From: a virus
Lineage: Duplodnaviria; Heunggongvirae; Uroviricota; Caudoviricetes
IMG/VR virus record: IMGVR_UViG_2579778631_000018
Reading direction: 5' to 3' (one strand)
DNA: 13,143 bases
Shown here piece after piece: positions 1 through 13,143 of the stretch. The first letter of the stretch is position 1. Each line of letters starts with the position of its first letter. The notes below the pieces were generated by a model. It had not been told where the DNA came from and made no database searches. It saw nothing but the letters and a program-made list of their open reading frames with translations. Both the position numbers and the translations under genes were made by a program.

Positions 1-996
1 TTATGGACGCATTATGGACATTCCTGACACCGGGTTAAGAGTCACTGCATCTTGTAAGAAATCCGGTGCAAAGTGTGCGTAGGTCATAGTTTGCTGAATG
101 TTAGAATGACCTAGGATGCGCTGCAATGTGATTATGTTACCTCCATTCATTATAAAATGTGTGGCAAATGTATGCCTCAAAACATGCACTGCCTGTCCGT
201 CAGGTAAATCGGGTTTTACTTCCCTGAGAGCGTTACGCACTTTGTAGTAACTGGCATTAAAAAGCCTGCCTGAATTTTTGGTCTTGATCCGTTTAATCAG
301 GTCCTGCGAAACGGGAATTGTCCTGCGCTTTCCGTTTTTAGTTTTCATAAACGTAACCATCTGGTTAATGATGTGTTCAGCTTTTAAATTAGACACTTCA
401 CTCCAGCGTCCACCAGTAGAAAGGCAGACCAGAGTCGCATTTAATTCATCACCATCAAGCATGGATAACAGTCGCGTAATCTCTTCACTGGACAAAAAAG
501 CCATTTCTGTAACAGCTTCACGTAACCGCTTAACCTCACGGAACGGGTTGTGAGAGTGGTATTCACCGGCGTCAATTAACTTGGTGAACATCCCGCTCAT
601 TATTGCCAGATGCCGATTTACGCTGGCTGGTTTTAGACCATCGTTCATCATTACAACGCGATAATCAGTTATCGTTTTCTTTGTTAGCTGGTCAGCTCTG
701 GACACTCCCATTTCTGCAAATTTGGCGATTATTGTCGTTAAACGCCCCCGTTCAATATCTCCACGCTCATGTGATTTTCCGTGATATATCCACCATCTGC
801 CTAACAACTCTGTAAGAGTTCGGCGGTCGGCTGGTTTCTCCAGCCACTCTTTGTTGTGGTAGTTAACCAGTACATGACGTTCGAATGCTTGAGCTTCACC
901 TTTAGTTTTAAATTTTCGCCTGATACGTTTTCCATCTGCACCCTGCGGTCTGACGTCCACTTCATAACGACCATCATCGAGCTTTTTAATAGACAT
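1..996 (-). CDS. int: Tyrosine site-specific integrase, P2-type (331 aa)
   Basis: Complete minus-strand ORF (ATG at 996-994, TAA at 3-1). N-terminus MSIKKLDDGRYEVDVRP... closely parallels phage P2 Int as I recall it. C-terminal catalytic boxes HVLRHTFATH and LGHSNIQQTMTYAHF are typical of tyrosine recombinases. Sits beside the C repressor, as in P2. Confidence 0.9.
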   Translation of the reverse strand: MSIKKLDDGRYEVDVRPQGADGKRIRRKFKTKGEAQAFERHVLVNYHNKEWLEKPADRRTLTELLGRWWIYHGKSHERGDIERGRLTTIIAKFAEMGVSRADQLTKKTITDYRVVMMNDGLKPASVNRHLAIMSGMFTKLIDAGEYHSHNPFREVKRLREAVTEMAFLSSEEITRLLSMLDGDELNATLVCLSTGGRWSEVSNLKAEHIINQMVTFMKTKNGKRRTIPVSQDLIKRIKTKNSGRLFNASYYKVRNALREVKPDLPDGQAVHVLRHTFATHFIMNGGNIITLQRILGHSNIQQTMTYAHFAPDFLQDAVTLNPVSGMSIMRP

Positions 997-1089
997 AAAG
1001 CCCTCCGATGACGCTGTTTACTTCTACTACTTGAAAATTAATGCAATTTTCTTTCGTACATTTACTACACACATATGCTGAATAAATCG

Positions 1090-1389
1090 TCAGCCAGTTT
1101 TCTGGTCTGAGTGGTGCAAGGTTGTTGAGTCTTGCCCAATGTGTGCGAGAGCCGGGGCTATTTGTCCAGCTGCTGGATCTGTTTCATCAAACATGAACCA
1201 GTCACGATACTTGCGAAAGCGTGGATGCTTAAACAGCTTCATACCTGCTTCCATAGGCATTTTTGATTTTCCTGATTCATATCCATGATATGTGTAGTAA
1301 TTAATTCCAATTAATTCAGCAAGTTCCTTAGTTTTAAGGCGTTCGGATTCACGGATGAGCTTTAGTTTTTCACTTTGTTCACTTGACAT
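1090..1389 (-). CDS. C: P2-type immunity repressor C (99 aa)
   Basis: The ORF track begins at an upstream TTG (1407); the in-frame ATG at 1389-1387 with GGAG about 12 nt upstream gives 99 aa. The C-terminal tail GQIAPALAHIGQDSTTLHHSDQKTG matches my recollection of the P2 C tail (GQIAPALAHFGQ...SGQKTG). Divergently oriented to cox, as in the P2 Pc/Pe switch. Confidence 0.8.
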   Translation of the reverse strand: MSSEQSEKLKLIRESERLKTKELAELIGINYYTYHGYESGKSKMPMEAGMKLFKHPRFRKYRDWFMFDETDPAAGQIAPALAHIGQDSTTLHHSDQKTG

Positions 1390-1482
1390 AATTTTGCTAA
1401 TCTCCAATTATATTGTTACTTGGCAATTTGTGATTCACTCAAAAAGGCTCTAGATGGCTCCGGTTGGTGAATCGCAAATCTT
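1390..1482. promoter_or_regulatory. Divergent Pc/Pe promoter-operator region of the lysogeny switch
   Basis: 93-bp gap between the divergent C and cox starts. Contains short repeated elements: ttggcaa/ttggtga, gtgattcac (about 1430-1438), gtgaatcgc (about 1467-1475), and ggctc twice. Operator assignment is positional only. Confidence 0.5.
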
Positions 1483-1854
1483 ATGGAGGATAGCAAAGTG
1501 ACGACAAATGTAGAAATTTCTTGTCCAACTAGCGATGAGGCAAGTTTCGAAAATGAAGCCAAACGTAAAAGCATTCAGATTTCAGAGCGCCCATCTGATT
1601 TGCTGTCGAAAGAAGGTTTTGCTCTTTACATCGGTAAGACACCACGCGCGGTGGCTGAAATGGCTAAAGCAGGAAAGCTGCCAGCCTTCTACATGACAGA
1701 CCCATTAAAACCAAGAGGGAAAGCTGAATTATGGATTAATCGCCGTGAGTGGGACAAGTACGCATCCCAACTGGTTGATGAAGCTCCGACAGAATGGCAT
1801 GACTGGAAAAATCGCATTAGTTACAGCAAATCAAGACATGGCCGTGCGGCTTAA
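1483..1854 (+). CDS. cox: Cox-like excisionase / transcriptional regulator (HTH)
   Basis: First gene of the rightward operon, divergent from C. The segment FALYIGKTPRAVAEMAKAGKLPAFYMTDP resembles the P2 Cox core (AKLIGKSTGAVRRMIDKGKLPVIDMTDP, from memory). The true start may be GTG at 1498, which has a GGAGGA Shine-Dalgarno 7-8 nt upstream; the ATG at 1483 has no obvious SD. Confidence 0.7.
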   Translation: MEDSKVTTNVEISCPTSDEASFENEAKRKSIQISERPSDLLSKEGFALYIGKTPRAVAEMAKAGKLPAFYMTDPLKPRGKAELWINRREWDKYASQLVDEAPTEWHDWKNRISYSKSRHGRAA

Positions 1855-1864
1855 GGTGGAAAGG

Positions 1865-2035
1865 ATGAACGAGCCTCGTTGTATTGCTCAGTTATTGCGT
1901 AACGAAAGCCCCAGGGCGATTGACTTTACCATCACCCACGGGAAGGGACGCAAGGGAATCATTATCCGCACCAAAAAACAGAGTCCGTTAAAGAAGGCTC
2001 TGACCTTTCTGAAAAGCCGGAGGGTCTGGAAATGA
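1865..2035 (+). CDS. Small basic hypothetical protein (56 aa), positional analogue of P2 orf78
   Basis: ATG at 1865 lies just after the cox stop (1852-1854), preceded by aaggtggaaagg. The longer ORF-track frame (1745..2035) overlaps cox and is unlikely to be the real start. Lys/Arg-rich (GKGRKGIIIRTKKQ). No family recognised. Confidence 0.4.
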   Translation: MNEPRCIAQLLRNESPRAIDFTITHGKGRKGIIIRTKKQSPLKKALTFLKSRRVWK

Positions 2036-2532
2036 CAGTGATGACGCTCAATCTCGTTGAAAAACAGCCAGCAACTATGCGCCGGATAATTGGTAAGCAT
2101 CTGGCCGTCCCTCGCTGGCAGGAGACATGCGATTATTATAATCAGATGATGGAACGCGAACGGCTAACGGTTTGCTTTCATGCGCAGTTAAAACAGCGTC
2201 ACGCAACGATGCGTTTTGAAGAAATGAACGACGTCGAACGTGAACGACTGGTATGTGCAATTGATGAATTGCGCGGGGCATTCTCAAAACGCCGTCAGGT
2301 TGGCGCAAGTGAGTATGCATATATTAGTTTTTTAACAGTCAGTCAGCGTCGCACTTTATTTATGCACGCACGACTGACAGAAAAAGAATTTAACCAGCCA
2401 TACTGGCGAATTAATGAAGAGTCATGTTACTGGCGTGATGCTTTATTCCGTGCATTACGTGAATTATTCAGCCTGTTTGAGTATGCACCGACAATTCTGA
2501 CGTCGGTAAAACCAGAGCAATATCTGCATTAA
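2032..2532 (+). CDS. B: Replication protein B-like (166 aa)
   Basis: ATG at 2032 overlaps the upstream TGA (ATGA coupling), with GGAGG 8 nt upstream. Size is identical to P2 gpB (166 aa, from memory) and the position between cox and A matches. The sequence itself is not independently recognised. Confidence 0.6.
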   Translation: MTVMTLNLVEKQPATMRRIIGKHLAVPRWQETCDYYNQMMERERLTVCFHAQLKQRHATMRFEEMNDVERERLVCAIDELRGAFSKRRQVGASEYAYISFLTVSQRRTLFMHARLTEKEFNQPYWRINEESCYWRDALFRALRELFSLFEYAPTILTSVKPEQYLH

Positions 2533-2595
2533 GTAATTAACCAGGGTTTTTAACGCACTTAATTGTGCGGGGCTTCTTTTTGCCTGGAGAAAGTC

Positions 2596-2820
2596 ATGCA
2601 TACAGTTTCTGAAAATCAGTGCGGTAAATACGCATTACTGCTGCAACAGGCCAGAACCGAAGCACAGGCCGACGCGGCGACGCGCTTTTCTTCTCATCTT
2701 GACGCCATGATTCGCCACATCACAAAGGCGGAGTTATCCCGCGTGGAGATAGTCGAGCTGCTCAGTCAGGAGTCGGAAAAATTTCACAATATCGGATTGT
2801 CTCGCGGGGAGGTACTTTGA
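2596..2820 (+). CDS. Hypothetical early protein (74 aa; P2 orf80 position)
   Basis: ATG at 2596 preceded by GGAGAAAG. The ORF-track start at 2563 lacks an RBS. Ends with TGA overlapping the next start. Confidence 0.45.
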
Positions 2821-3119
2821 TGTCCTGTTCTCATTCAGTTGTATTACTGAATAACGCCTTAAAAATCGCCGTTATGAAAAATGGCGATTTGTCTCTTATT
2901 CAACTTTGTCTTGATAAAGAAAAACGCGACATCACTGAATCTGTTATCGCGATTTATCAGAATGAATTAAACCTCCTGTCTGATGTGGTCAATTTACTTG
3001 TTAAACGCGCTGTATTCCACAAGCAAATTTCCTCAGTGGATGAACTGACAAAATTAACGACAGAACTTGCCAGTTATTGCGCTGATGTATCCAGGAAACT
3101 TAACGATAAAAGGAGCTGA
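2820..3119 (+). CDS. Hypothetical early protein (99 aa; P2 orf81 position), low GC
   Basis: ATG at 2820 overlaps the upstream TGA (TGATG). Visibly more AT-rich than the flanking genes. No family recognised. Confidence 0.5.
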   Translation: MSCSHSVVLLNNALKIAVMKNGDLSLIQLCLDKEKRDITESVIAIYQNELNLLSDVVNLLVKRAVFHKQISSVDELTKLTTELASYCADVSRKLNDKRS

Positions 3120-3121
3120 TA

Positions 3122-3346
3122 ATGCCGGACAACGTAGATTTTATTCAGGAACAACAGGCTGAATTACTGGAGCGCCAGATTAACGCGGCAAGGGTAAAAC
3201 ATTGCGGTGCTTCTGCGCTGGTTTGCGAAGAGTGTGACGCGCCAATACCTGCTGCCCGTCGTGCGGCTTATCCGTCAGCCACGCGTTGTGTTTCCTGTCA
3301 GTCAGTCTTTGAAGCAAAAAACAAACATTACCGGAGAACGGCATGA
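3122..3346 (+). CDS. TraR/DksA-family C4 zinc-finger protein (74 aa; P2 orf82-like)
   Basis: AAAAGGAG SD 6 nt before ATG 3122. Four-Cys arrangement C-x2-C ... C-x2-C (VCEECDAP ... RCVSCQSV) in a short protein with an N-terminal coiled region, as in TraR/DksA. Confidence 0.7.
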   Translation: MPDNVDFIQEQQAELLERQINAARVKHCGASALVCEECDAPIPAARRAAYPSATRCVSCQSVFEAKNKHYRRTA

Positions 3347-3618
3347 GTATTCGTATTGAAATTGGCGAACGTTATGTCGTTACCAGTGACAGCTTCCAGT
3401 TTATTCTCCACGAGAAAAAGAGAGCGGAAAGCGGTAAAAACGCCGGTCAGGAATGGCTGGCGGTGGTTGGTTATTACCCGAAATTAAGCCAGCTTGTTTC
3501 CGGCCTGATGCATCACGATATTCTGACCGGAAGCGCAAAGTCTTTTGCTGATTTAAACGCGCAGGTTGAGCAACTCAGCAGGCGTTGTTCAGAGGCTTTT
3601 GGCTCATATGGCCGTTAA
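3343..3618 (+). CDS. Hypothetical early protein (91 aa; P2 orf83 position)
   Basis: Start overlaps the orf82-like stop; its 3' end overlaps the gene A start by 11 nt. No family recognised. Confidence 0.5.
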   Translation: MSIRIEIGERYVVTSDSFQFILHEKKRAESGKNAGQEWLAVVGYYPKLSQLVSGLMHHDILTGSAKSFADLNAQVEQLSRRCSEAFGSYGR

Positions 3619-5731
3619 AGCCTCCGGGCGTTTTGTCCCTCCGTCAGCATTTGCTGCAGGCACCGGTAAGGCGTTTACCGGTGCTTATGCATGGAACGCG
3701 CCACGCGAGGCCGTCGGGCGCGAAAGACCCCTTACACGTGACGAGATGCGTCAGGTGCAAGGTGTTTTATCCACGATTAACCGCCTGCCTTACTTTTTGC
3801 GCTCGCTGTTTACTTCACGCTATGACTACATCCGGCGCAATAAAAGCCCGGTGCACGGGTTTTATTTCCTCACATCCACTTTTCAGCGTCGTTTATGGCC
3901 GCGCATTGAGCGCGTGAATCAGCGCCATGAAATGAACACCGACGCGTCGTTGCTGTTTCTGGCAGAGCGTGACCATTATGCGCGTCTGCCGGGGATGAAT
4001 GATAAGGAGCTGAAAAAGTTTGCCGCCCGTATCTCATCGCAGCTTTTCATGATGTATGAGGAACTCTGCGATGCCTGGGTGGATGCGCATGGCGAAAAAG
4101 AATCGCTGTTTACGGATGAGGCGCAGGCTCACCTCTATGGTCATGTTGCTGGCGCTGCACGTGCTTTCAATATTTCCCCGCTCTACTGGAAAAAATACCG
4201 TAAAGGACAGATGACCACGAGGCAGGCATATTCTGCCATTGCCCGCCTGTTTAACGATGAGTGGTGGATTAGTCAGCTTAAAGGCCAGCGTATGCGCTGG
4301 CATGAGGCGTTACTGATTGCTGTCGGGGAGGTCAATAAAGACCGTTCACCTTATGCCAGTAAACATGCCATTCGTGATGTGCGTGCACGCCGCCAGGCAA
4401 ATCTGGAATTTCTTAAATCGTGTGACCTTGAAAACAGGGAAACCGGCGAACGCATCGACCTTATCAGTAAGGTGATGGGCAGTATTTCTAATCCTGAAAT
4501 TCGCCGGATGGAGCTGATGAACACCATTGCCGGTATTGAGCGTTACGCCGCCGCAGAGGGTGATGTGGGGATGTTTATCACGCTTACCGCGCCGTCAAAG
4601 TATCACCCGACACGTCAGGTCGGAAAAGGCGAAAGTAAAACCGTCCAGCTAAATCACGGCTGGAACGATGAGGCATTTAATCCAAAGGATGCGCAGCGTT
4701 ATCTCTGCCATATCTGGAGCCTGATGCGCACGGCATTCAAGGATAATGATTTACAGGTCTACGGTTTGCGTGTCGTCGAGCCACACCACGACGGAACGCC
4801 GCACTGGCATATGATGCTTTTTTGTAATCCACGCCAGCGTAACCAGATTATCGAAATCATGCGTCGCTATGCGCTCAAAGAGGATGGCGACGAAAGAGGA
4901 GCCGCGCGAAACCGTTTTCAGGCAAAACATCTTAACCGGGGCGGTGCTGCGGGGTATATCGCAAAATACATCTCAAAAAACATCGATGGCTATGCACTGG
5001 ATGGTCAGCTCGATAATGATACCGGCAGGCCGCTGAAAGATACTGCTGCGGCTGTTACCGCATGGGCGTCAACGTGGCGAATTCCGCAATTTAAAACGGT
5101 TGGCCTGCCGACAATGGGGGCTTACCGTGAACTACGCAAATTGCCTCGCGGCGTCAGTATTGCTGATGAGTTTGACGAACGCGTCGAGGCTGCTCGCGCT
5201 GCCGCAGACAGTGGTGATTTTGCGTTGTATATCAGCGCGCAGGGTGGGGCAAATGTCCCGCGCGATTGTCAGACTGTCAGGGTTGCCCGTAGCCCGTCGG
5301 ATGACGTTAACGAGTACGAGGAAGAAGTCGAGAGAGTGGTCGGCATTTACGCGCCGCATCTCGGCGCGCGTCATATTCATATCACCAGAACGACGGACTG
5401 GCGCATTGTGCCGAAAGTTCCGGTCGTTGAGCCTTTGACTTTAAAAAGCGGCATCGCCGCGCCTCGGAGTCCTGTCAATAACTGTGGAAAACTCACCTGT
5501 GGCGATACTTCGTTACCGGCTCCCACACCTTCTGAGCACGCCGCAGCAGTGCTTAATCTGGTAGATGACGGTGTTATCGAATGGAATGACCCGGAGGTCT
5601 TGAAAGTGCTTAATCTGGCATTGAAAATAGAAGCATCACGTAAATGTACAAACAAAGGAGACACACGAGCAGGCATAGTTGGCGAGTCAACCGCGATTTT
5701 CAATGTACAGGATGCTGATAATCAACAATGA
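3608..5731 (+). CDS. A: Replication initiation endonuclease gpA (HUH rolling-circle initiator, 707 aa)
   Basis: ATG at 3608 with AGAGG 12 nt upstream; the ORF-track start at 3566 is an upstream TTG. N-terminus MAVKASGRFVPPSAFAAGTGK matches my memory of P2 gpA. HUH-type metal motif EPHHDGTPHWHMMLF and the double-tyrosine motif GYIAKYISK (compare phiX174 A protein YVAKYVNK) are present. Confidence 0.9.
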   Translation: MAVKASGRFVPPSAFAAGTGKAFTGAYAWNAPREAVGRERPLTRDEMRQVQGVLSTINRLPYFLRSLFTSRYDYIRRNKSPVHGFYFLTSTFQRRLWPRIERVNQRHEMNTDASLLFLAERDHYARLPGMNDKELKKFAARISSQLFMMYEELCDAWVDAHGEKESLFTDEAQAHLYGHVAGAARAFNISPLYWKKYRKGQMTTRQAYSAIARLFNDEWWISQLKGQRMRWHEALLIAVGEVNKDRSPYASKHAIRDVRARRQANLEFLKSCDLENRETGERIDLISKVMGSISNPEIRRMELMNTIAGIERYAAAEGDVGMFITLTAPSKYHPTRQVGKGESKTVQLNHGWNDEAFNPKDAQRYLCHIWSLMRTAFKDNDLQVYGLRVVEPHHDGTPHWHMMLFCNPRQRNQIIEIMRRYALKEDGDERGAARNRFQAKHLNRGGAAGYIAKYISKNIDGYALDGQLDNDTGRPLKDTAAAVTAWASTWRIPQFKTVGLPTMGAYRELRKLPRGVSIADEFDERVEAARAAADSGDFALYISAQGGANVPRDCQTVRVARSPSDDVNEYEEEVERVVGIYAPHLGARHIHITRTTDWRIVPKVPVVEPLTLKSGIAAPRSPVNNCGKLTCGDTSLPAPTPSEHAAAVLNLVDDGVIEWNDPEVLKVLNLALKIEASRKCTNKGDTRAGIVGESTAIFNVQDADNQQ

Positions 5732-5846
5732 TAGCTATTGTGACTATGCTAACCCTATGAATCTATTGTGTGATTATGAGTAATGACTTTTTCTAATATT
5801 TGATTTTTAATGTAGTAACTTAGCTAATTTTAAAATTTGTAAAAGG
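5732..5846 (+). promoter_or_regulatory. AT-rich intergenic leader, putative promoter of the cargo operon
   Basis: 115 bp of very AT-rich sequence between the A stop and the SIR2 start, with several loose -35/-10-like hexamers (TTGATT ... TAAAAT). AAGGA precedes the ATGs at 5847/5853. No exact promoter call is possible by eye. Confidence 0.35.
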
Positions 5847-7100
5847 ATGTTTATGTCGATTTATCAAGGTGGTAACAAGTTAAATGAGGATGATTTTCGT
5901 TCTCACGTTTATTCCTTGTGTCAATTAGATAATGTTGGCGTTCTGTTAGGTGCTGGTGCTTCTGTCGGTTGTGGTGGGAAAACGATGAAAGATGTATGGA
6001 AATCGTTTAAGCAAAACTACCCTGAGCTTTTGGGAGCACTTATTGATAAATATCTTCTGGTTTCGCAAATTGATTCTGATAACAATTTGGTCAATGTTGA
6101 ACTTTTGATAGATGAAGCAACTAAATTTCTTTCTGTAGCTAAAACTAGACGATGTGAAGATGAAGAGGAGGAATTCAGGAAGATATTAAGTTCATTATAT
6201 AAAGAGGTTACGAAGGCTGCATTATTAACAGGAGAACAGTTTAGAGAGAAAAATCAGGGTAAAAAAGATGCGTTTAAATATCACAAAGAGTTAATTTCAA
6301 AATTAATTTCAAATAGACAGCCCGGTCAGTCGGCTCCGGCAATTTTTACAACAAATTATGATTTGGCCTTAGAGTGGGCTGCAGAAGATTTAGGAATACA
6401 GTTGTTTAATGGTTTTTCTGGGCTACATACACGGCAGTTTTATCCCCAGAATTTTGATTTGGCTTTCAGAAATGTAAATGCGAAGGGCGAAGCAAGATTC
6501 GGACATTATCATGCGTATCTCTATAAATTACATGGCTCACTTACGTGGTATCAAAATGATAGCTTGACTGTTAACGAAGTTAGTGCATCTCAAGCATATG
6601 ATGAATATATTAATGACATAATCAATAAAGATGACTTTTATCGCGGTCAACATTTGATTTATCCAGGGGCGAATAAATATAGCCATACAATCGGCTTCGT
6701 TTATGGAGAGATGTTTAGACGTTTTGGGGAGTTTATTTCGAAACCTCAAACAGCGTTGTTCATAAATGGGTTTGGTTTCGGTGATTATCATATAAATAGA
6801 ATAATATTAGGCGCGTTACTGAATCCATCTTTCCATGTTGTTATATATTATCCTGAATTGGAAGAAGCAATTACCAAAGTAAGTAAGGGTGGCGGTTCGG
6901 AAGCTGAGAAAGCTATTGTTACTTTAAAAAACATGGCTTTCAATCAAGTAACTGTAGTTGGGGGAGGAAGCAAGGCATATTTTAATAGTTTCGTAGAACA
7001 TCTACCATACCCTGTGCTCTTTCCACGAGATAATATTGTTGATGAGTTGGTTGAAGCAATTGCTAATCTTTCTAAAGGAGAAGGTAATGTCCCTTTTTAA
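5847..7100 (+). CDS. SIR2-family (sirtuin-like) NAD-binding protein, defence-associated (about 417 aa)
   Basis: Glycine loop LLGAGAS (aa 33-39, nt 5949-5963), TTNYD (aa 168-172) and LHGS (aa 228-231) occur in the order and spacing of the SIR2 fold. Low-GC gene directly upstream of, and overlapping, a HerA-like ATPase. The start could be ATG 5847 or 5853. Confidence 0.8.
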   Translation: MFMSIYQGGNKLNEDDFRSHVYSLCQLDNVGVLLGAGASVGCGGKTMKDVWKSFKQNYPELLGALIDKYLLVSQIDSDNNLVNVELLIDEATKFLSVAKTRRCEDEEEEFRKILSSLYKEVTKAALLTGEQFREKNQGKKDAFKYHKELISKLISNRQPGQSAPAIFTTNYDLALEWAAEDLGIQLFNGFSGLHTRQFYPQNFDLAFRNVNAKGEARFGHYHAYLYKLHGSLTWYQNDSLTVNEVSASQAYDEYINDIINKDDFYRGQHLIYPGANKYSHTIGFVYGEMFRRFGEFISKPQTALFINGFGFGDYHINRIILGALLNPSFHVVIYYPELEEAITKVSKGGGSEAEKAIVTLKNMAFNQVTVVGGGSKAYFNSFVEHLPYPVLFPRDNIVDELVEAIANLSKGEGNVPF

Positions 7101-8919
7101 ACTTACTGAAATCTCGGCTATTGGATACGTTGTAGGATTAGAAGGGGAAAGAATTAGGATAAACCTGCATGAGGGGTTGCAAGGCAGATTAGCATCGCAT
7201 AGAAAGGGGGTGAGCTCAGTAACGCAACCAGGAGATCTTATTGGGTTCGATGCAGGTAATATATTAGTTGTCGCAAGAGTGACAGATATGGCATTTGTTG
7301 AAGCGGATAAAGCGCATAAGGCAAATGTAGGCACATCTGATTTAGCTGATATACCTCTAAGACAAATTATCGCCTATGCAATTGGCTTTGTGAAAAGGGA
7401 GTTAAATGGTTATGTTTTTATATCAGAAGATTGGCGCTTACCTGCATTGGGTTCTTCTGCTGTTCCTTTGACTTCAGATTTTTTGAACATCATTTATAGT
7501 ATTGATAAAGAAGAACTCCCAAAAGCGGTTGAATTAGGTGTGGATTCTCGAACTAAAACCGTTAAGATATTTGCAAGTGTTGATAAATTATTGTCGCGAC
7601 ACTTAGCCGTTCTTGGTAGTACAGGATATGGTAAATCAAATTTCAATGCTTTGTTAACGAGGAAGGTTTCTGAAAAATACCCTAACTCAAGAATAGTTAT
7701 TTTTGACATAAATGGTGAATACGCGCAAGCTTTTACAGGTATTCCAAATGTAAAGCACACTATTCTAGGGGAATCCCCAAATGTTGATAGTTTGGAAAAA
7801 AATCAGCAAAAGGGTGAGCTATATAGTGAAGAGTATTATTGTTATAAAAAGATACCATATCAGGCATTAGGTTTTGCTGGGTTAATTAAATTATTAAGAC
7901 CAAGTGATAAAACACAATTGCCCGCATTAAGAAATGCATTAAGTGCAATTAATCGGACTCATTTTAAAGGCCGTAATATTTACTTGGAAAAAGATGATGG
8001 TGAAACTTTTCTTTTGTATGATGATTGTCGTGACACAAATCAAAGTAAATTGGCTGAGTGGTTGGATTTATTAAGGCGTAGACGTCTTAAAAGAACGAAT
8101 GTATGGCCACCGTTTAAAAGTTTAGCGACTTTGGTTGCTGAATTTGGATGTGTAGCTGCTGACCGTTCTAATGGAAGTAAACGTGACGCGTTTGGTTTTA
8201 GTAACGTGTTGCCATTGGTAAAAATCATACAACAACTTGCAGAGGATATAAGATTTAAATCTATTGTTAATTTAAATGGAGGGGGTGAGCTAGCAGATGG
8301 TGGAACGCATTGGGATAAAGCTATGAGTGATGAAGTTGATTACTTCTTTGGTAAGGAAAAAGGACAAGAAAATGATTGGAATGTTCATATAGTTAATATG
8401 AAAAATTTGGCACAAGATCATGCTCCAATGTTACTTAGTGCATTGTTGGAGATGTTTGCTGAGATACTATTTAGACGTGGGCAGGAACGTTCGTATCCTA
8501 CGGTACTTTTGTTGGAAGAAGCGCATCATTACCTGCGTGACCCTTATGCTGAAATTGACTCACAGATTAAAGCATATGAACGACTTGCTAAAGAAGGTAG
8601 GAAATTCAAATGCTCTTTAATTGTCAGTACTCAGCGACCCTCAGAGCTTTCTCCTACTGTTTTGGCAATGTGTTCAAACTGGTTTTCGTTACGTTTGACT
8701 AATGAAAGAGATTTACAGGCACTCAGATATGCAATGGAAAGCGGTAATGAACAAATCTTAAAACAAATATCAGGTTTACCAAGAGGTGATGCTGTTGCAT
8801 TTGGTTCTGCATTTAATTTGCCTGTAAGAATTTCAATTAATCAAGCAAGGCCAGGGCCAAAATCTTCAGATGCTGTTTTTTCTGAAGAATGGGCTAATTG
8901 TACAGAATTACGTTGTTAA
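7087..8919 (+). CDS. herA: HerA-family P-loop ATPase, defence-associated (about 610 aa)
   Basis: ATG at 7087 with a strong AAAGGAG SD 6 nt upstream; the ORF-track start at 7036 is a TTG. Walker A GSTGYGKS (nt 7615-7638), downstream VIFDINGEY, Walker B VLLLEEAHHY and LIVSTQRPSEL, all typical of HerA/FtsK-type ATPases. An N-terminal region of about 175 aa before the P-loop is consistent with a HAS-barrel. Confidence 0.8.
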   Translation: MSLFKLTEISAIGYVVGLEGERIRINLHEGLQGRLASHRKGVSSVTQPGDLIGFDAGNILVVARVTDMAFVEADKAHKANVGTSDLADIPLRQIIAYAIGFVKRELNGYVFISEDWRLPALGSSAVPLTSDFLNIIYSIDKEELPKAVELGVDSRTKTVKIFASVDKLLSRHLAVLGSTGYGKSNFNALLTRKVSEKYPNSRIVIFDINGEYAQAFTGIPNVKHTILGESPNVDSLEKNQQKGELYSEEYYCYKKIPYQALGFAGLIKLLRPSDKTQLPALRNALSAINRTHFKGRNIYLEKDDGETFLLYDDCRDTNQSKLAEWLDLLRRRRLKRTNVWPPFKSLATLVAEFGCVAADRSNGSKRDAFGFSNVLPLVKIIQQLAEDIRFKSIVNLNGGGELADGGTHWDKAMSDEVDYFFGKEKGQENDWNVHIVNMKNLAQDHAPMLLSALLEMFAEILFRRGQERSYPTVLLLEEAHHYLRDPYAEIDSQIKAYERLAKEGRKFKCSLIVSTQRPSELSPTVLAMCSNWFSLRLTNERDLQALRYAMESGNEQILKQISGLPRGDAVAFGSAFNLPVRISINQARPGPKSSDAVFSEEWANCTELRC

Positions 8920-9076
8920 TTACCTGATGTACATGGCTAGTGCAAGTTGGTAGCGCATGTCTATATGCATTTATTTGCATGTGTTTTATTGAGTGAGCGC
9001 ACAAGCTTGATGACCCGACAGGTATGTATTTAGACTGAATTTACACCTGCATTAAAACCGCCCCACGAAGCGGGCG

Positions 9077-9095
9077 GGCGAGGCGGGGAAAGCAC
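9077..9095. other. cos site: 19-nt P2-type cohesive-end sequence GGCGAGGCGGGGAAAGCAC
   Basis: Exact match to the P2 cohesive-end sequence as I recall it, located between the cargo genes and Q, where cos lies in a P2 prophage. Confidence 0.75.
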
Positions 9096-9235
9096 TGCGC
9101 GCTGGCGGTGGTGCTGATTTTATTTTTTCAGCGTCTGAGCGCGTCGTGATGGCGTTTAGATTGTTCGCCGGGGCGTTGGTGTGTCTGCGGGATGTTTTGT
9201 GCGGTGGTGAGCGTGTGAGGGCGTGATGACAGGGT

Positions 9236-9258
9236 GTAAAAAGCCGCCCGCAGGCGGC
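9236..9258 (-). terminator. Intrinsic terminator downstream of Q (end of the P-Q late transcript)
   Basis: On the minus strand: GC stem gccgcc / ggcggc with a 4-nt loop, followed by TTTTT, immediately 3' of the Q stop codon (9264-9266). Confidence 0.55.
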
Positions 9259-9263
9259 GATGT

Positions 9264-10298
9264 TCAGCCGTTGTCAGTGTCCAGTGAGTAGTTTTTAAAG
9301 CGGATGACCTCCTGACCTAGCCAGCCGTTTATCTCGCGGATCCTGTCCTGTAACGGGATAAGCTCATTGCGGACAAAGACCTTTGCCACTTTCTCAATAT
9401 CACCCAGCGACCCGACGTTCTCCGGCTTGCCGCCCATCAACTGAAAAGGGATGCGGTGCGCGTCCAGCAGGTCTGCGGCGCTGGCTTTTTTGATATTAAA
9501 AAAATCGTCCTTCGTCGCCACTTCACTGAGCGGGATAATTTTAATGCCGTCGGCTTTCCCCTGTGGGGCATAGAGAAACAGGTTTTTAAAGTTGTTGCGG
9601 CCTTTCGACTTCACCATGTTTTCGCGAAGCATTTCGATATCGTTGCGGTCCTGCACGGCATCGGTGACGTACATGATGTATCCGGCATGTGCGCCGTTTT
9701 CGTAATACTTGCGGCGGAACAGCGTGGCCGACTCATTCAGCCAGGCAGAGTTAAGGGCGCTGAGATATTCCGGCAGGCCGTACAGCTCCTGATTAACATC
9801 GGGCTCCAGCAGGTGAAACACGGAGCCGGGCGCGAAGGCTGTCGGCTCGTTGAAGGACGGCACCCACCAGTAAACATCCTCCTCCACGCCACGGCGGGTA
9901 TATTTTGCCGGTGAGGTTTCCAGTCTGATGACCTTACCGGTGGTGCTGTAACGCTTTTCCAGAAACGCATTACCGAACACCAGAAAATCCAGCACAAAGC
10001 GGCTGAAATCCTGTTGCGAAAGCCACGGATGCGGGATAAATGTCGAGGCCAGAATATTGCGTTTAACGTAAATCGGTGAGCTGTGATGCACGGCAGCACG
10101 CAGGCTTTTCGCCAGACCGGTAAAGCTGACCGGTGGCTCATACCATCTGCCGTTACTGATGCATTCGACGTAATTCAGAATGTCACGGCGGTCGAGTACC
10201 GGTACCGGCTCACCAAAGGTGAATGCCTCCATTTTCGGGGCGCTGGCGGTGATTGTTTTTGCCGCAGGTTGCGGTGTTTTCCCTTTTTTCTTGCTCAT
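9264..10298 (-). CDS. Q: Portal protein gpQ (344 aa)
   Basis: 344 aa, identical in length to P2 gpQ (from memory). Its start codon overlaps the P stop (ATGA) and it lies between cos and P, as in P2. Confidence 0.85.
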   Translation of the reverse strand: MSKKKGKTPQPAAKTITASAPKMEAFTFGEPVPVLDRRDILNYVECISNGRWYEPPVSFTGLAKSLRAAVHHSSPIYVKRNILASTFIPHPWLSQQDFSRFVLDFLVFGNAFLEKRYSTTGKVIRLETSPAKYTRRGVEEDVYWWVPSFNEPTAFAPGSVFHLLEPDVNQELYGLPEYLSALNSAWLNESATLFRRKYYENGAHAGYIMYVTDAVQDRNDIEMLRENMVKSKGRNNFKNLFLYAPQGKADGIKIIPLSEVATKDDFFNIKKASAADLLDAHRIPFQLMGGKPENVGSLGDIEKVAKVFVRNELIPLQDRIREINGWLGQEVIRFKNYSLDTDNG

Positions 10299-12070
10299 CA
10301 GTAAAACTCCAGAATGGTGGATGTCAGCGGGGTGCTGATACCGGCGGTGAGTGGCTCATTTAACAGGGCGTGCATGGTCGCCCAGGCGAGGTCGGCGTGG
10401 CTGGCTTCCTCGCTGCGGCTGGCCTCATAGGTGGCGCTGCGTCCGCTGCTGGTCATGGTCTTGCGGATAGCCATAAACGAGCTGGTGATGTCGGTGGCGC
10501 TGACGTCATATTCCAGACAGCCACGGCGAATAACGTCTTTTGCCTTGAGCACCATTGCGGTTTTCATTTCCGGCGTGTAGCGGATATCGCGCGCGGCGGG
10601 ATAGAACGAGCGCACGAGCTGGAACACGCCGACACCGAGGCCGGTGGCATCAATACCGATGTATTCGACGTTGTATTTTTCGGTGAGTTTGCGGATGGAT
10701 TCCGCCTGAGTGGCAAAGTCCATGCCTTTCCACTGGTGACGCTCAAGTATTCTGAATTTGCCACCGGCCACCACCGGCGGTGCCAGCACCACGCATCCGG
10801 CGCTGTCGCCACGGTGTGACGGGTCGTAACCAATCCATACCGGGCGGGAGCCGAACGGATTGGCGGCAAACGGCGCATAGTCTTCCCATTCTTCCAGCGT
10901 GTCGACCATACAGCGTTGCAGCTCCTCGAACGGGAACACCGACGCCTTGTCGTCAACAAATTCACACATGAACAGGTTTTTAAAATCGTCGGCGCTGTTT
11001 TCGCGTTTGAGCTGCTCAATGTCGAACAGCGTGCAGCCGCCTTTCAGCGCGTCCTCAATGGTGACAATCTGCCGCCACTGGCCGTCCGCACAGAGAAGCC
11101 CACCGGCAAGGGCGTTATGACTGACGTCGATTTCCACGCGTTCGGCGGCGCTGGCGCGTCCCCGGTTGAACAGTTCACCCGACCAGAACGGGTAGGCGTC
11201 GTGCGCCAGCGTGGACGGGGTGGAGAAATAGGTCGATCGCAGGTGACTCTGTGAGGCCATACCTGATGCCACCTTACGCAGCACCTGAAAATTCGGGATC
11301 CAGAAAATCTCGTCGACGTACAGGTCGCCGTTATGGCTCTGTGCGGTGTTGGAGTTGGTGCCGAGAAAAATCAGTTTTGCGCCGTTATTGCCCAGGACAA
11401 TCGGGTCACCGGTCAGGTCAACGTCAACCAGCCGGGCAAAGGCGATGATGTATTCGCGGAACACATACGCCTGCGTTTTACTGGCCGACAGAAAAATCTG
11501 GTTATGACCGGTTTTCAGGGCGCGCAGCAGCGCCTCGCGGGAAAAATAAAACGTCGCGCCAATCTGGCGGGATTTCAGGATATCGCGGATGCGGTGCTCA
11601 AGCCCGGCGCGATACCAGTGCAACTGATATTCGAAAGACTGCTCAAAGAAAATCTGCTCCAGCTTTTCGATGGCCTCGTCGCTGAAAAAATTCTTTTTCG
11701 GTTTGCGACGCCCGCCTTTGTTGCGGTTAGCGACGTTCGGATTAAGGTCTGCTTCGTTGCCGGTCTGGCTGTAGCGGTTGACCCGTGCCAGTCGTTCAAT
11801 CTGGCGTCCGAGCAGGTCAATTTCCTTGAAGTCACCGCCGGTTTTCTGCGGTTTGATGATGAGCTGGGTCAGCCGCGCTTCCAGACTCATTTCGACACGG
11901 CTGATGGGGGCAACGCTGTCCCAGCCGTCGCGCTGTTTCCAGCTCTGCACCGTCGGGCGTTTCATCTGCAACATGGCGGCAATCTGCGGCACGGAAAACC
12001 CCTGCCAGTACAGCAGCGCCGCCTGACGACGCGGGTCGTGTAAAAGAGTGGTGTCTGTGGTGATGGTCAT
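10298..12070 (-). CDS. P: Terminase large (ATPase) subunit gpP (590 aa)
   Basis: ATG at 12070-12068 with GAGG 8 nt upstream gives 590 aa, the P2 gpP length as I recall; the ORF track extends to an upstream TTG at 12100. Gene order cos-Q-P is conserved. Confidence 0.85.
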   Translation of the reverse strand: MTITTDTTLLHDPRRQAALLYWQGFSVPQIAAMLQMKRPTVQSWKQRDGWDSVAPISRVEMSLEARLTQLIIKPQKTGGDFKEIDLLGRQIERLARVNRYSQTGNEADLNPNVANRNKGGRRKPKKNFFSDEAIEKLEQIFFEQSFEYQLHWYRAGLEHRIRDILKSRQIGATFYFSREALLRALKTGHNQIFLSASKTQAYVFREYIIAFARLVDVDLTGDPIVLGNNGAKLIFLGTNSNTAQSHNGDLYVDEIFWIPNFQVLRKVASGMASQSHLRSTYFSTPSTLAHDAYPFWSGELFNRGRASAAERVEIDVSHNALAGGLLCADGQWRQIVTIEDALKGGCTLFDIEQLKRENSADDFKNLFMCEFVDDKASVFPFEELQRCMVDTLEEWEDYAPFAANPFGSRPVWIGYDPSHRGDSAGCVVLAPPVVAGGKFRILERHQWKGMDFATQAESIRKLTEKYNVEYIGIDATGLGVGVFQLVRSFYPAARDIRYTPEMKTAMVLKAKDVIRRGCLEYDVSATDITSSFMAIRKTMTSSGRSATYEASRSEEASHADLAWATMHALLNEPLTAGISTPLTSTILEFY

Positions 12071-12243
12071 GAATACCTCGCCGTGATGAATACACGGCAA
12101 GGCTACTGAGTCGCGCCCCGCGATTCGCTAAGGTGCTGTTGTGTCAGTGATAAGCCATCCGGGACTGATGGCGGAGGATGCGTATCGTCGGGAAACTGAT
12201 GCCGACATGTGACTCCTCTAATCACTATTCAGGACTCCTGACA
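12071..12243. promoter_or_regulatory. Divergent late-promoter region between P (-) and O (+)
   Basis: Positional: in P2 this intergenic region carries the Ogr-dependent late promoters for the PQ and ONMLKRS operons. A partial dyad tgtga-N9-tcact is visible at about 12208-12226, but I found no exact TGT-N12-ACA element. Confidence 0.4.
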
Positions 12244-12360
12244 ATGGCAAAAAAAGTCTCAAAATTCTTTCGTATCGGCGTTGCGTATTTTCATGAAAGG
12301 AGATCACTCAATAACTTCCATCGAGATCGGGTAATAACATTTGAACAGATCGCTGAATAA
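12244..12360 (+). pseudogene. O: Capsid scaffold gene O, truncated by insertion (first about 13 codons intact)
   Basis: ATG at 12244 encodes MAKKVSKFFRIGV, which matches the P2 gpO N-terminus as I recall it (MAKKVSKFFRIGVEG...). The frame then reads unrelated sequence and stops at 12358-12360. The ORF-track start at 12178 is an upstream in-frame ATG, probably not used. Confidence 0.65.
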
Positions 12361-12419
12361 CATCGATGGAGATCACTTTTGACTCATTTTGTTATTCAGT
12401 GATCTCCATCAATGTTATT
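12354..12419. repeat. Imperfect inverted repeat of about 22 bp (tgaataacatcgatggagatcac / its complement, 1 mismatch), 20-bp spacer
   Basis: Read directly from the sequence: 12354-12377 versus 12398-12419. A further direct copy of ggagatcact lies at about 12299-12308. Lies in the presumed IS terminal region, upstream of istA. Confidence 0.6.
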
Positions 12420-12474
12420 GGAACTTCACAGGTGTGTTGATCTGTATCTTTTGCCATTCCGGTAAAGGATACCT

Positions 12475-13143
12475 ATGCCAACAGTTCCAATTTCTATGAG
12501 AAAACTTAAAGAAATTCTTAGGCTTAAATACGGTGTTGGACTCAGCCATCGACAAATTGGTCGTAGTCTTGCAATCTCCCCTTCCGTTGTATCCAGATAT
12601 GCTAATCGGGCGGCTCAACTTGGCATAAAGCAGTGGCCCTTACCTACAGGATGGGATGATACAAAACTAAAACATGCGTTCCTTCAGACCCAGGTTAAGA
12701 TGAAGAAGCACTCTCTGCCTGACTGGGCTACAGTACACCGGGAACTGCGTAATAAATGCGTGACGCTGCAGCTACTCTGGGAAGAATACTGTGAGCGTAA
12801 TCCAGGCGGTTTTTACAGCTATAACCATTACTGCCGGATGTACCGTGAATGGCTCAAAACCACTTCACCATCAATGCGTCAGGTACATAAAGCTGGCGAA
12901 AAACTTTTCGTTGATTACTGTGGACCTACCGTTGGCGTTACCGACCCTGAGACCGGAGAAATAAGAACTGCTCAGGTCATCGTAGCTGTTCTCGGGGCAT
13001 CAAGTTACACATGGGCAGAGGCCACCTGGTCTCAGCAGCTTGAAGACTGGGTGATGAGTCATGTTCGCTGCTTCCAGTGGTTGGGTGGCGTTCCTGAACT
13101 TGTTGTTCCGGACAATCTGAAAAGCGCCACATCCAGGGCATGT
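12475..13143 (+). CDS. istA: IS21-family transposase IstA, N-terminal 223 codons (3' partial)
   Basis: ATG at 12475 with AAAGGA 5 nt upstream; the frame is open to the window end. N-terminal HTH MPTVPISMRKLKEILRLKYGVGLSHRQIGRSLAISPSVVSRY is characteristic of IstA, followed by the start of the DDE core (KLFVDYCGPTVGV...). Absent from the ORF track because no stop falls in the window. Confidence 0.8.
   Translation, partial: MPTVPISMRKLKEILRLKYGVGLSHRQIGRSLAISPSVVSRYANRAAQLGIKQWPLPTGWDDTKLKHAFLQTQVKMKKHSLPDWATVHRELRNKCVTLQLLWEEYCERNPGGFYSYNHYCRMYREWLKTTSPSMRQVHKAGEKLFVDYCGPTVGVTDPETGEIRTAQVIVAVLGASSYTWAEATWSQQLEDWVMSHVRCFQWLGGVPELVVPDNLKSATSRAC

Follow-up and report, generated by a model that had tools for sequence, protein, structure and literature searches.

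The question that this locus raises is why gene O, the first gene of a P2-like late operon, breaks off shortly after its start, and whether the defective prophage is kept by its host for the sake of the defence genes that it carries. The window analysed here is the whole stretch of 13,143 nucleotides of the Caudoviricetes record IMGVR_UViG_2579778631_000018 (IMG/VR). It represents the left half of a P2-like prophage and comprises the following features upstream of gene O:

1-996, minus strand: integrase gene, followed by C, cox and B
3608-5731: gene A, an open reading frame of 707 amino acids
5847-7100: SIR2 gene of the putative defence pair
7087-8919: HerA gene of the putative defence pair
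9077-9095: cos, the exact P2 19-mer
9264-10298, minus strand: portal gene Q, 344 amino acids, same length as in P2
10298-12070, minus strand: terminase ATPase gene P, 590 amino acids, intact and divergent from O (Pfam Terminase_5/6N/6C)
12134-12164, plus strand: putative Ogr activator binding site, common to the divergent late promoters pP and pO (31/31 bases identical to P2, NC_001895, positions 3057-3087)
12204, plus strand: predicted start of O-operon transcription (12194-12214 is identical to the 21 bases surrounding the P2 start at 3127)

Gene order, sequence, cos and the divergent promoters pP and pO place this DNA among the P2-like prophages (Peduovirus). The window begins exactly at the integrase stop codon and its cox gene is of the longer type (123 amino acids). 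In relatives the integrase gene adjoins pflA, and judged from them the attachment site of this prophage probably lies there as well. The P protein has the length known from P2 and an identical protein is very widespread (26,576 index blocks); in ten of the ten places listed it is adjoined by an intact O of 284 residues. The function of the Ogr site is carried over from the P2 annotation and remains putative here, and the bases around the start site of pP are also identical to those of P2. In the pO promoter region a single-base difference is found at 12183, 21 bases upstream of the predicted start: the window and loci L011 and L012/L013 are on one side, most other P2-like prophages including that of Escherichia coli EC45 on the opposite one.

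It was originally predicted that int, C, the replication genes, cos, Q, P and the SIR2-HerA operon are intact. This holds for cos, which is exact, for Q and P with their P2 lengths, and for the full-length SIR2 and HerA genes, but among the replication genes gene A is altered. Its product is homologous to P2 gpA (761 amino acids) over residues 1-675 only, and the last 86 residues of the P2 protein are replaced by 32 unrelated ones (window 5604-5731). The same ending occurs in relatives with SIR2-HerA that are free of the insertion, and PGAP flags gene A as incomplete in the IS-free relative strain A17. The cargo module thus appears to begin inside gene A. The phage collection searched contained no phage that combines the SIR2-HerA cargo with such a 3' end of gpA, and therefore the viability of the lineage is unproven even without the IS.

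The break in gene O can be located to the base. The features around it are:

12244-12281, plus strand: native 5' end of the capsid scaffold/protease gene O (identity to P2 and strain A17)
12277-12281: GGCGT, the last five native bases of O and left copy of the expected target duplication
12244-12360, plus strand: chimeric open reading frame of 38 codons (O codons 1-13 plus IS sequence), no function expected

Gene O starts with the ATG at 12244 and reads MAKKVSKFFRIGV, which in a translation comparison is the same as residues 1-13 of P2 gpO; its DNA matches P2 up to 12281 and from 12282 the left end of an insertion sequence follows. The native portion comprises 12 codons and two bases (translated as MAKKVSKFFRIG(V)), and the third base of codon 13 is the first T of the IS. 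Alignments to IS-free relatives end at 12283, although the native DNA of O ends at 12281, because the first two bases of the IS (TG) coincide with the native ones. Strain A17 aligns without any break from 1 to 12283 and then not at all. In a five-way alignment P2 and A17 read on as GGCGTTGAGGGTGACACC at the point where the window departs. The fused frame from 12282 reads AYFHERRSLNNFHRDRVITFEQIAE and has its stop codon at 12358-12360, so that the chimeric O frame ends at codon 39. An identical product of 38 residues is annotated in two draft assemblies sharing this junction. Compared with a full-length gpO (PF05929, with the protease at residues 1-141 and the scaffold at 195-284) the window holds only codons 1-13 before the IS. 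This means that O starts correctly and diverges after about 13 codons, exactly as had been proposed.

The inserted DNA itself can be identified, and it comprises:

12282-13143, plus strand: left 862 bases of ISEc12 (IS21 family), ending with the window (862/862 identity to 11 E. coli copies)
12282-12474, plus strand: left terminal region of the IS, with a terminal inverted repeat starting with TG and internal direct and inverted repeats containing GGAGATC
12292-12308, 12361-12377 and 12398-12419: the GGAGATC-containing repeats, the third one inverted
12475-13143, plus strand, same direction as O: istA transposase gene, codons 1-223 of 513 (NF033546, Pfam rve)

In RefSeq the 11 fully identical copies bear the name ISEc12. 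The complete element is 2581 bp long and contains istA and istB, and its copies differ mutually at 0-4 positions. The terminal repeat TGCGTATTTTCATGAAAGGAGATC stands at the start of the IS from 12282; a second GGAGATCACT copy lies at 12361-12377 and an inverted copy at 12398-12419. These internal repeats of the left region are presumed to be binding sites of IstA. The inverted-repeat match between left and right ends is seen in the complete copy of EC45; the TG...CA termini with internal repeats are found with the left end in the window and the right end in EC45 and other complete copies. What had been described as repeat-rich DNA in front of a transposase gene is therefore the left terminal region, with istA following from 12475. 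The IstA fragment of 223 residues scores 183.9 bits against the NCBIfam model NF033546 (“IS21 family transposase”, cut-off 160). Of the architecture of an IstA transposase, with N-terminal HTH and DDE/rve catalytic core, the Pfam rve domain begins at residue 139 and the catalytic core is cut by the window end. Together with the junction at 12282 this score above the IS21 cut-off bears out the proposal that an IS21-family element breaks O. ISEc12 is a common, currently active and recently spreading element of E. coli; in genomes that carry it the number of matching places is 2 at the median and reaches 14. Since the IS bases of the window are identical to those of 11 other copies, the insertion must be recent.

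Target duplications of 5 bp are common and typical for IS21 members, strong target sequence specificity is reported to be absent, and target selection is described as structure-based (PMC11208146). Matching duplications of 5-8 bp flank ten of the ten other complete ISEc12 copies examined. The copy at locus L002 has an 8-bp duplication, GCTGTTTG, at 12593-12600 and 15182-15189; two other copies have an apparent duplication of 6 bp and the remaining ones of 5 bp. Either the length of the duplication is variable in ISEc12 or the matches were lengthened by chance. As the top BLAST matches ran 12-15 bases into the flank, a shared target motif (TTCGTA..CG..T) or an IS carrying part of O was considered as well. 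After extraction of 11 distinct sites no target consensus emerged, and the motif was rejected as an artefact of ranking by coverage.

The window ends in codon 223 of the 513 codons of istA, and its right-hand side was read instead in E. coli EC45 (NZ_CP059125.1). There ISEc12 is complete with 2581 bp, an istA of 513 amino acids and an istB whose product scores 269 bits against NF038214 (cut-off 200), and its right end is ...GGTAATACGCA. GGCGT is present on both sides of the element as a 5-bp duplication. To the right of the IS follow codons 12-284 of O and then N, M, L and the lysis and tail genes, all of them intact. This remainder of O has no start codon, and an in-frame TAA stands 9 bases ahead of it; in the public complete genome the remainder is already annotated as a partial gene. 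A rescue of O via a fusion start in the right end of the IS is excluded at an EC45-type site by this TAA. By contrast, at the site in strain 4114 PGAP annotates a fusion open reading frame from the IS right end into O. Because the identical junction of EC45 comes with a complete IS, a duplication and the remainder of O, a simple insertion is most likely in the window, too. By analogy, the genome from which the window derives would most likely contain the complete IS, the GGCGT duplication, codons 12-284 of O and the late genes, and the native DNA after the right IS end would most likely continue as GGCGT followed by TGAGGGTGACACC.

We therefore consider it very probable that a recent simple transposition of ISEc12 into gene O of a P2-like prophage has caused an incidental knock-out and left the prophage stranded. 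According to this scheme, a copy of ISEc12 (istA-istB, 2581 bp) would have jumped into O at base 38 in the same direction as the gene. O is split, and its 5' piece, joined to IS sequence, terminates after 38 codons. Without gpO no viable P2 capsids would be formed and P4 satellites would likewise be unable to use this helper. Untranslated O RNA in front of N would give Rho-dependent polarity on the late genes, and the genes expressed in lysogeny, including the SIR2-HerA pair in the hotspot between A and Q, are left untouched.

The consequences for the late region can be specified further. The protein gpO is reported to be essential for viable P2 and P4 virions, with residues 1-141 as N-terminal maturation protease and residues 195-284 as C-terminal scaffold (PMC7552001). 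As gpO is essential and O is split, particle production should be lost, and this almost certainly is the case in the prophage described here; the original prediction of a prophage unable to make particles agrees with the essential role of gpO and with the EC45 remainder, which lacks a start codon and has a TAA just upstream. In P2 the O operon is annotated as comprising O, N, M, L, X, Y, K, lysA, lysB, R and S. ISEc12 begins 78 bases downstream of the predicted pO start and 38 bases into O. No intrinsic terminator on the plus strand is predicted inside ISEc12, and transcripts may therefore in part read through to N. Nevertheless, as approximately 960 bases of untranslated O remainder would separate istB from N, it is likely that N, M, L and, farther down the operon, the lysis and tail genes are subject to Rho-dependent polarity. 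That lysis and tail-completion functions are lost as well is plausible. Concerning an experimental check by induction, P2 is described as non-inducible in the title of Bertani & Bertani 1970 as given in the reference list of PMC5009727; going by that title, a negative result with mitomycin C would probably be uninformative.

The second part of the original prediction was that the prophage is retained as a defence island. As to the cargo, PADLOC models match both proteins end to end (SIR2 630 bits, HerA 919 bits); with the NCBIfam models SIR2_antiphage reaches 507 (cut-off 500) and HerA_antiphage 709, which is under its cut-off of 800 with a full-length alignment. These two adjacent full-length genes are thus predicted to form a SIR2-HerA system. 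In RefSeq HerA carries only the label “ATP-binding protein”. The pair occupies the A-Q hotspot, the place of old/tin in P2, and viable P2-like phages as a rule carry defence cargo there (Rousset et al. 2022, PMC9122126).

Could the knock-out of O then be kept by selection, so that the prophage has become a grounded defence island for SIR2-HerA? The undamaged state of the lysogeny genes, cos, Q, P and SIR2-HerA would be in line with this, as would the repeated hits of ISEc12 on P2-like prophages and the presence of the same junction in three cargo contexts. The distribution among genomes, however, points in the other direction. A comparison of the whole window with complete E. coli genomes revealed the SIR2-HerA prophage without the IS in at least 20 of them and with the IS in none. 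A probe of 1200 bases, with the insertion point in its middle, finds the P-O region in 1522 complete genomes, and in 1505 of these it runs through without interruption; of 1525 records, only 17 have a stretch that is not intact. Furthermore, the IS portion is identical to other copies and shows no sign of age, and there is no further decay except for the replacement of the gpA C-terminus, which is common to IS-free relatives. If P2 is non-inducible, as the title cited above has it, induction probably kills lysogens only rarely and little would be gained from inactivation. Selective retention is thus quite improbable. IS-free copies are the norm, cargo between A and Q is normal, and nothing indicates selection for the defective state; this part of the original prediction is not supported. 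The knock-out of O is sporadic and recent, with no sign of long-term domestication.

Another reading takes the IS as the boundary of a rearrangement, formed by recombination between copies or by IS-mediated deletion or inversion. The remainder of O and the late genes would then be gone or displaced and the window would show the edge of a prophage remnant. The right side does lie beyond the window, and the multiple ISEc12 places per genome offer substrates for recombination. Nevertheless, we consider this very improbable, since EC45 as the sole complete genome with the same junction shows a clean insertion with duplication and full late region, and the duplications match on both sides in all ten other complete ISEc12 copies examined. 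An assembly artefact, in which a contig end was wrongly joined to a repeated IS copy, is scarcely conceivable: IS copies are the usual places of misassembly, but the same junction recurs base-exact in the complete genome of EC45 and in two draft assemblies, and the terminus of the IS is correct.

The insertion recurs in P2-like prophages. The same junction in O is known from three cargo contexts, namely SIR2-HerA in the window, a methyltransferase/ParB-N cargo in EC45 and retron Ec48, which together with reverse transcriptase genes is the cargo of the two sibling draft assemblies. The positions of this junction and the further ISEc12 sites in other P2-like prophages are:

window 12277-12283; locus L001 9654-9660 and 12235-12244; locus L012 10034-10040: positions of the same junction
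O base 54: ISEc12 in strain 4114
O at about base 256: ISEc12 in OkiPb01716
P-O intergenic region: ISEc12 in 98207
gene A: ISEc12 in E302 and SCEC020022
Q/P boundary: ISEc12 in 18044
orf91: ISEc12 in PEC209
L002 12601, L006 9184, L007 12205, L008 8141, L009 12859, L010 6835 and L011 10051: coordinates of the further sites just named (seven or more)

Four of the ISEc12 sites, including that of the window, lie within approximately 430 bp around pO and the 5' end of O. The searches for recurrence were biased toward this region and joined only same-strand pieces, and as found by them all sites have the same orientation. A structure-based IstB/IstA hotspot at the P2 late-promoter region, by which ISEc12 would repeatedly and independently ground P2-like prophages, can be proposed from this clustering and from the identical base and orientation in three cargo contexts but is rather unlikely. 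Independent events would mean that an IS family reported to be without strong target sequence specificity has a local hotspot here. As pO reads directly into istA, Ogr or P4 delta from a superinfecting phage might, in such a hotspot, also turn on the transposase. Alternatively, a single ancestral insertion may have been spread by recombination among P2-like prophages. The Q-P regions of the prophages sharing the junction are about 2% divergent from each other and no closer than those of IS-free prophages. Within the IS no SNPs were found that would tell one event from several, all copies being the same over their first 862 bases. On the left flank there is almost no variation across P2-like prophages in the 470 bases that precede the junction, and the sole SNP there, that at 12183, sets EC45 apart from the window and is too weak to decide between one and several events. 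A junction 30-mer gave no match in species-representative genomes or metagenome contigs, and exact matches to the SIR2 protein were confined to contigs of 3.7-4 kb.

The prophage should be annotated as particle-defective and unusable as P4 helper, yet still be counted among the carriers of SIR2-HerA. In prophages, knock-outs of morphogenesis genes by IS elements are commonplace, and the consequence mainly concerns annotation. The O::ISEc12 allele is already present in public genomes and represents a known IS in a phage gene known to be essential. Beyond this, only the repeated occurrence of ISEc12 at and near the O site in P2-like prophages is of mild interest.

Finally, the locus can be compared with known systems. 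With P2 (NC_001895) the window has in common the gene order int-C-cox-B-A-[cargo]-cos-Q-P/O and approximately 97% identity over 1851-5603 and 9077-12283, with cos, pO and the activator site being exact. It differs from P2 in the integrase and immunity region (window 1-1854, about 66-69% nucleotide identity), in the truncated homology of gpA and in the interrupted O. With ISEc12 it shares all 862 bases, the TG terminus, the multiple terminal repeats and the N-terminus of IstA, and there is no difference in the portion seen. The O::ISEc12 prophage of EC45 has the same insertion point, orientation and junction. In contrast with the window, its cargo consists of a cytosine methyltransferase and a ParB-N protein instead of SIR2-HerA, its Q-P region diverges by 2% and a single SNP (12183) lies 99 bases from the junction. 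Other ISEc12-disrupted P2-like prophages contain the same IS in the same orientation, but their insertion points differ and some of them keep O intact.
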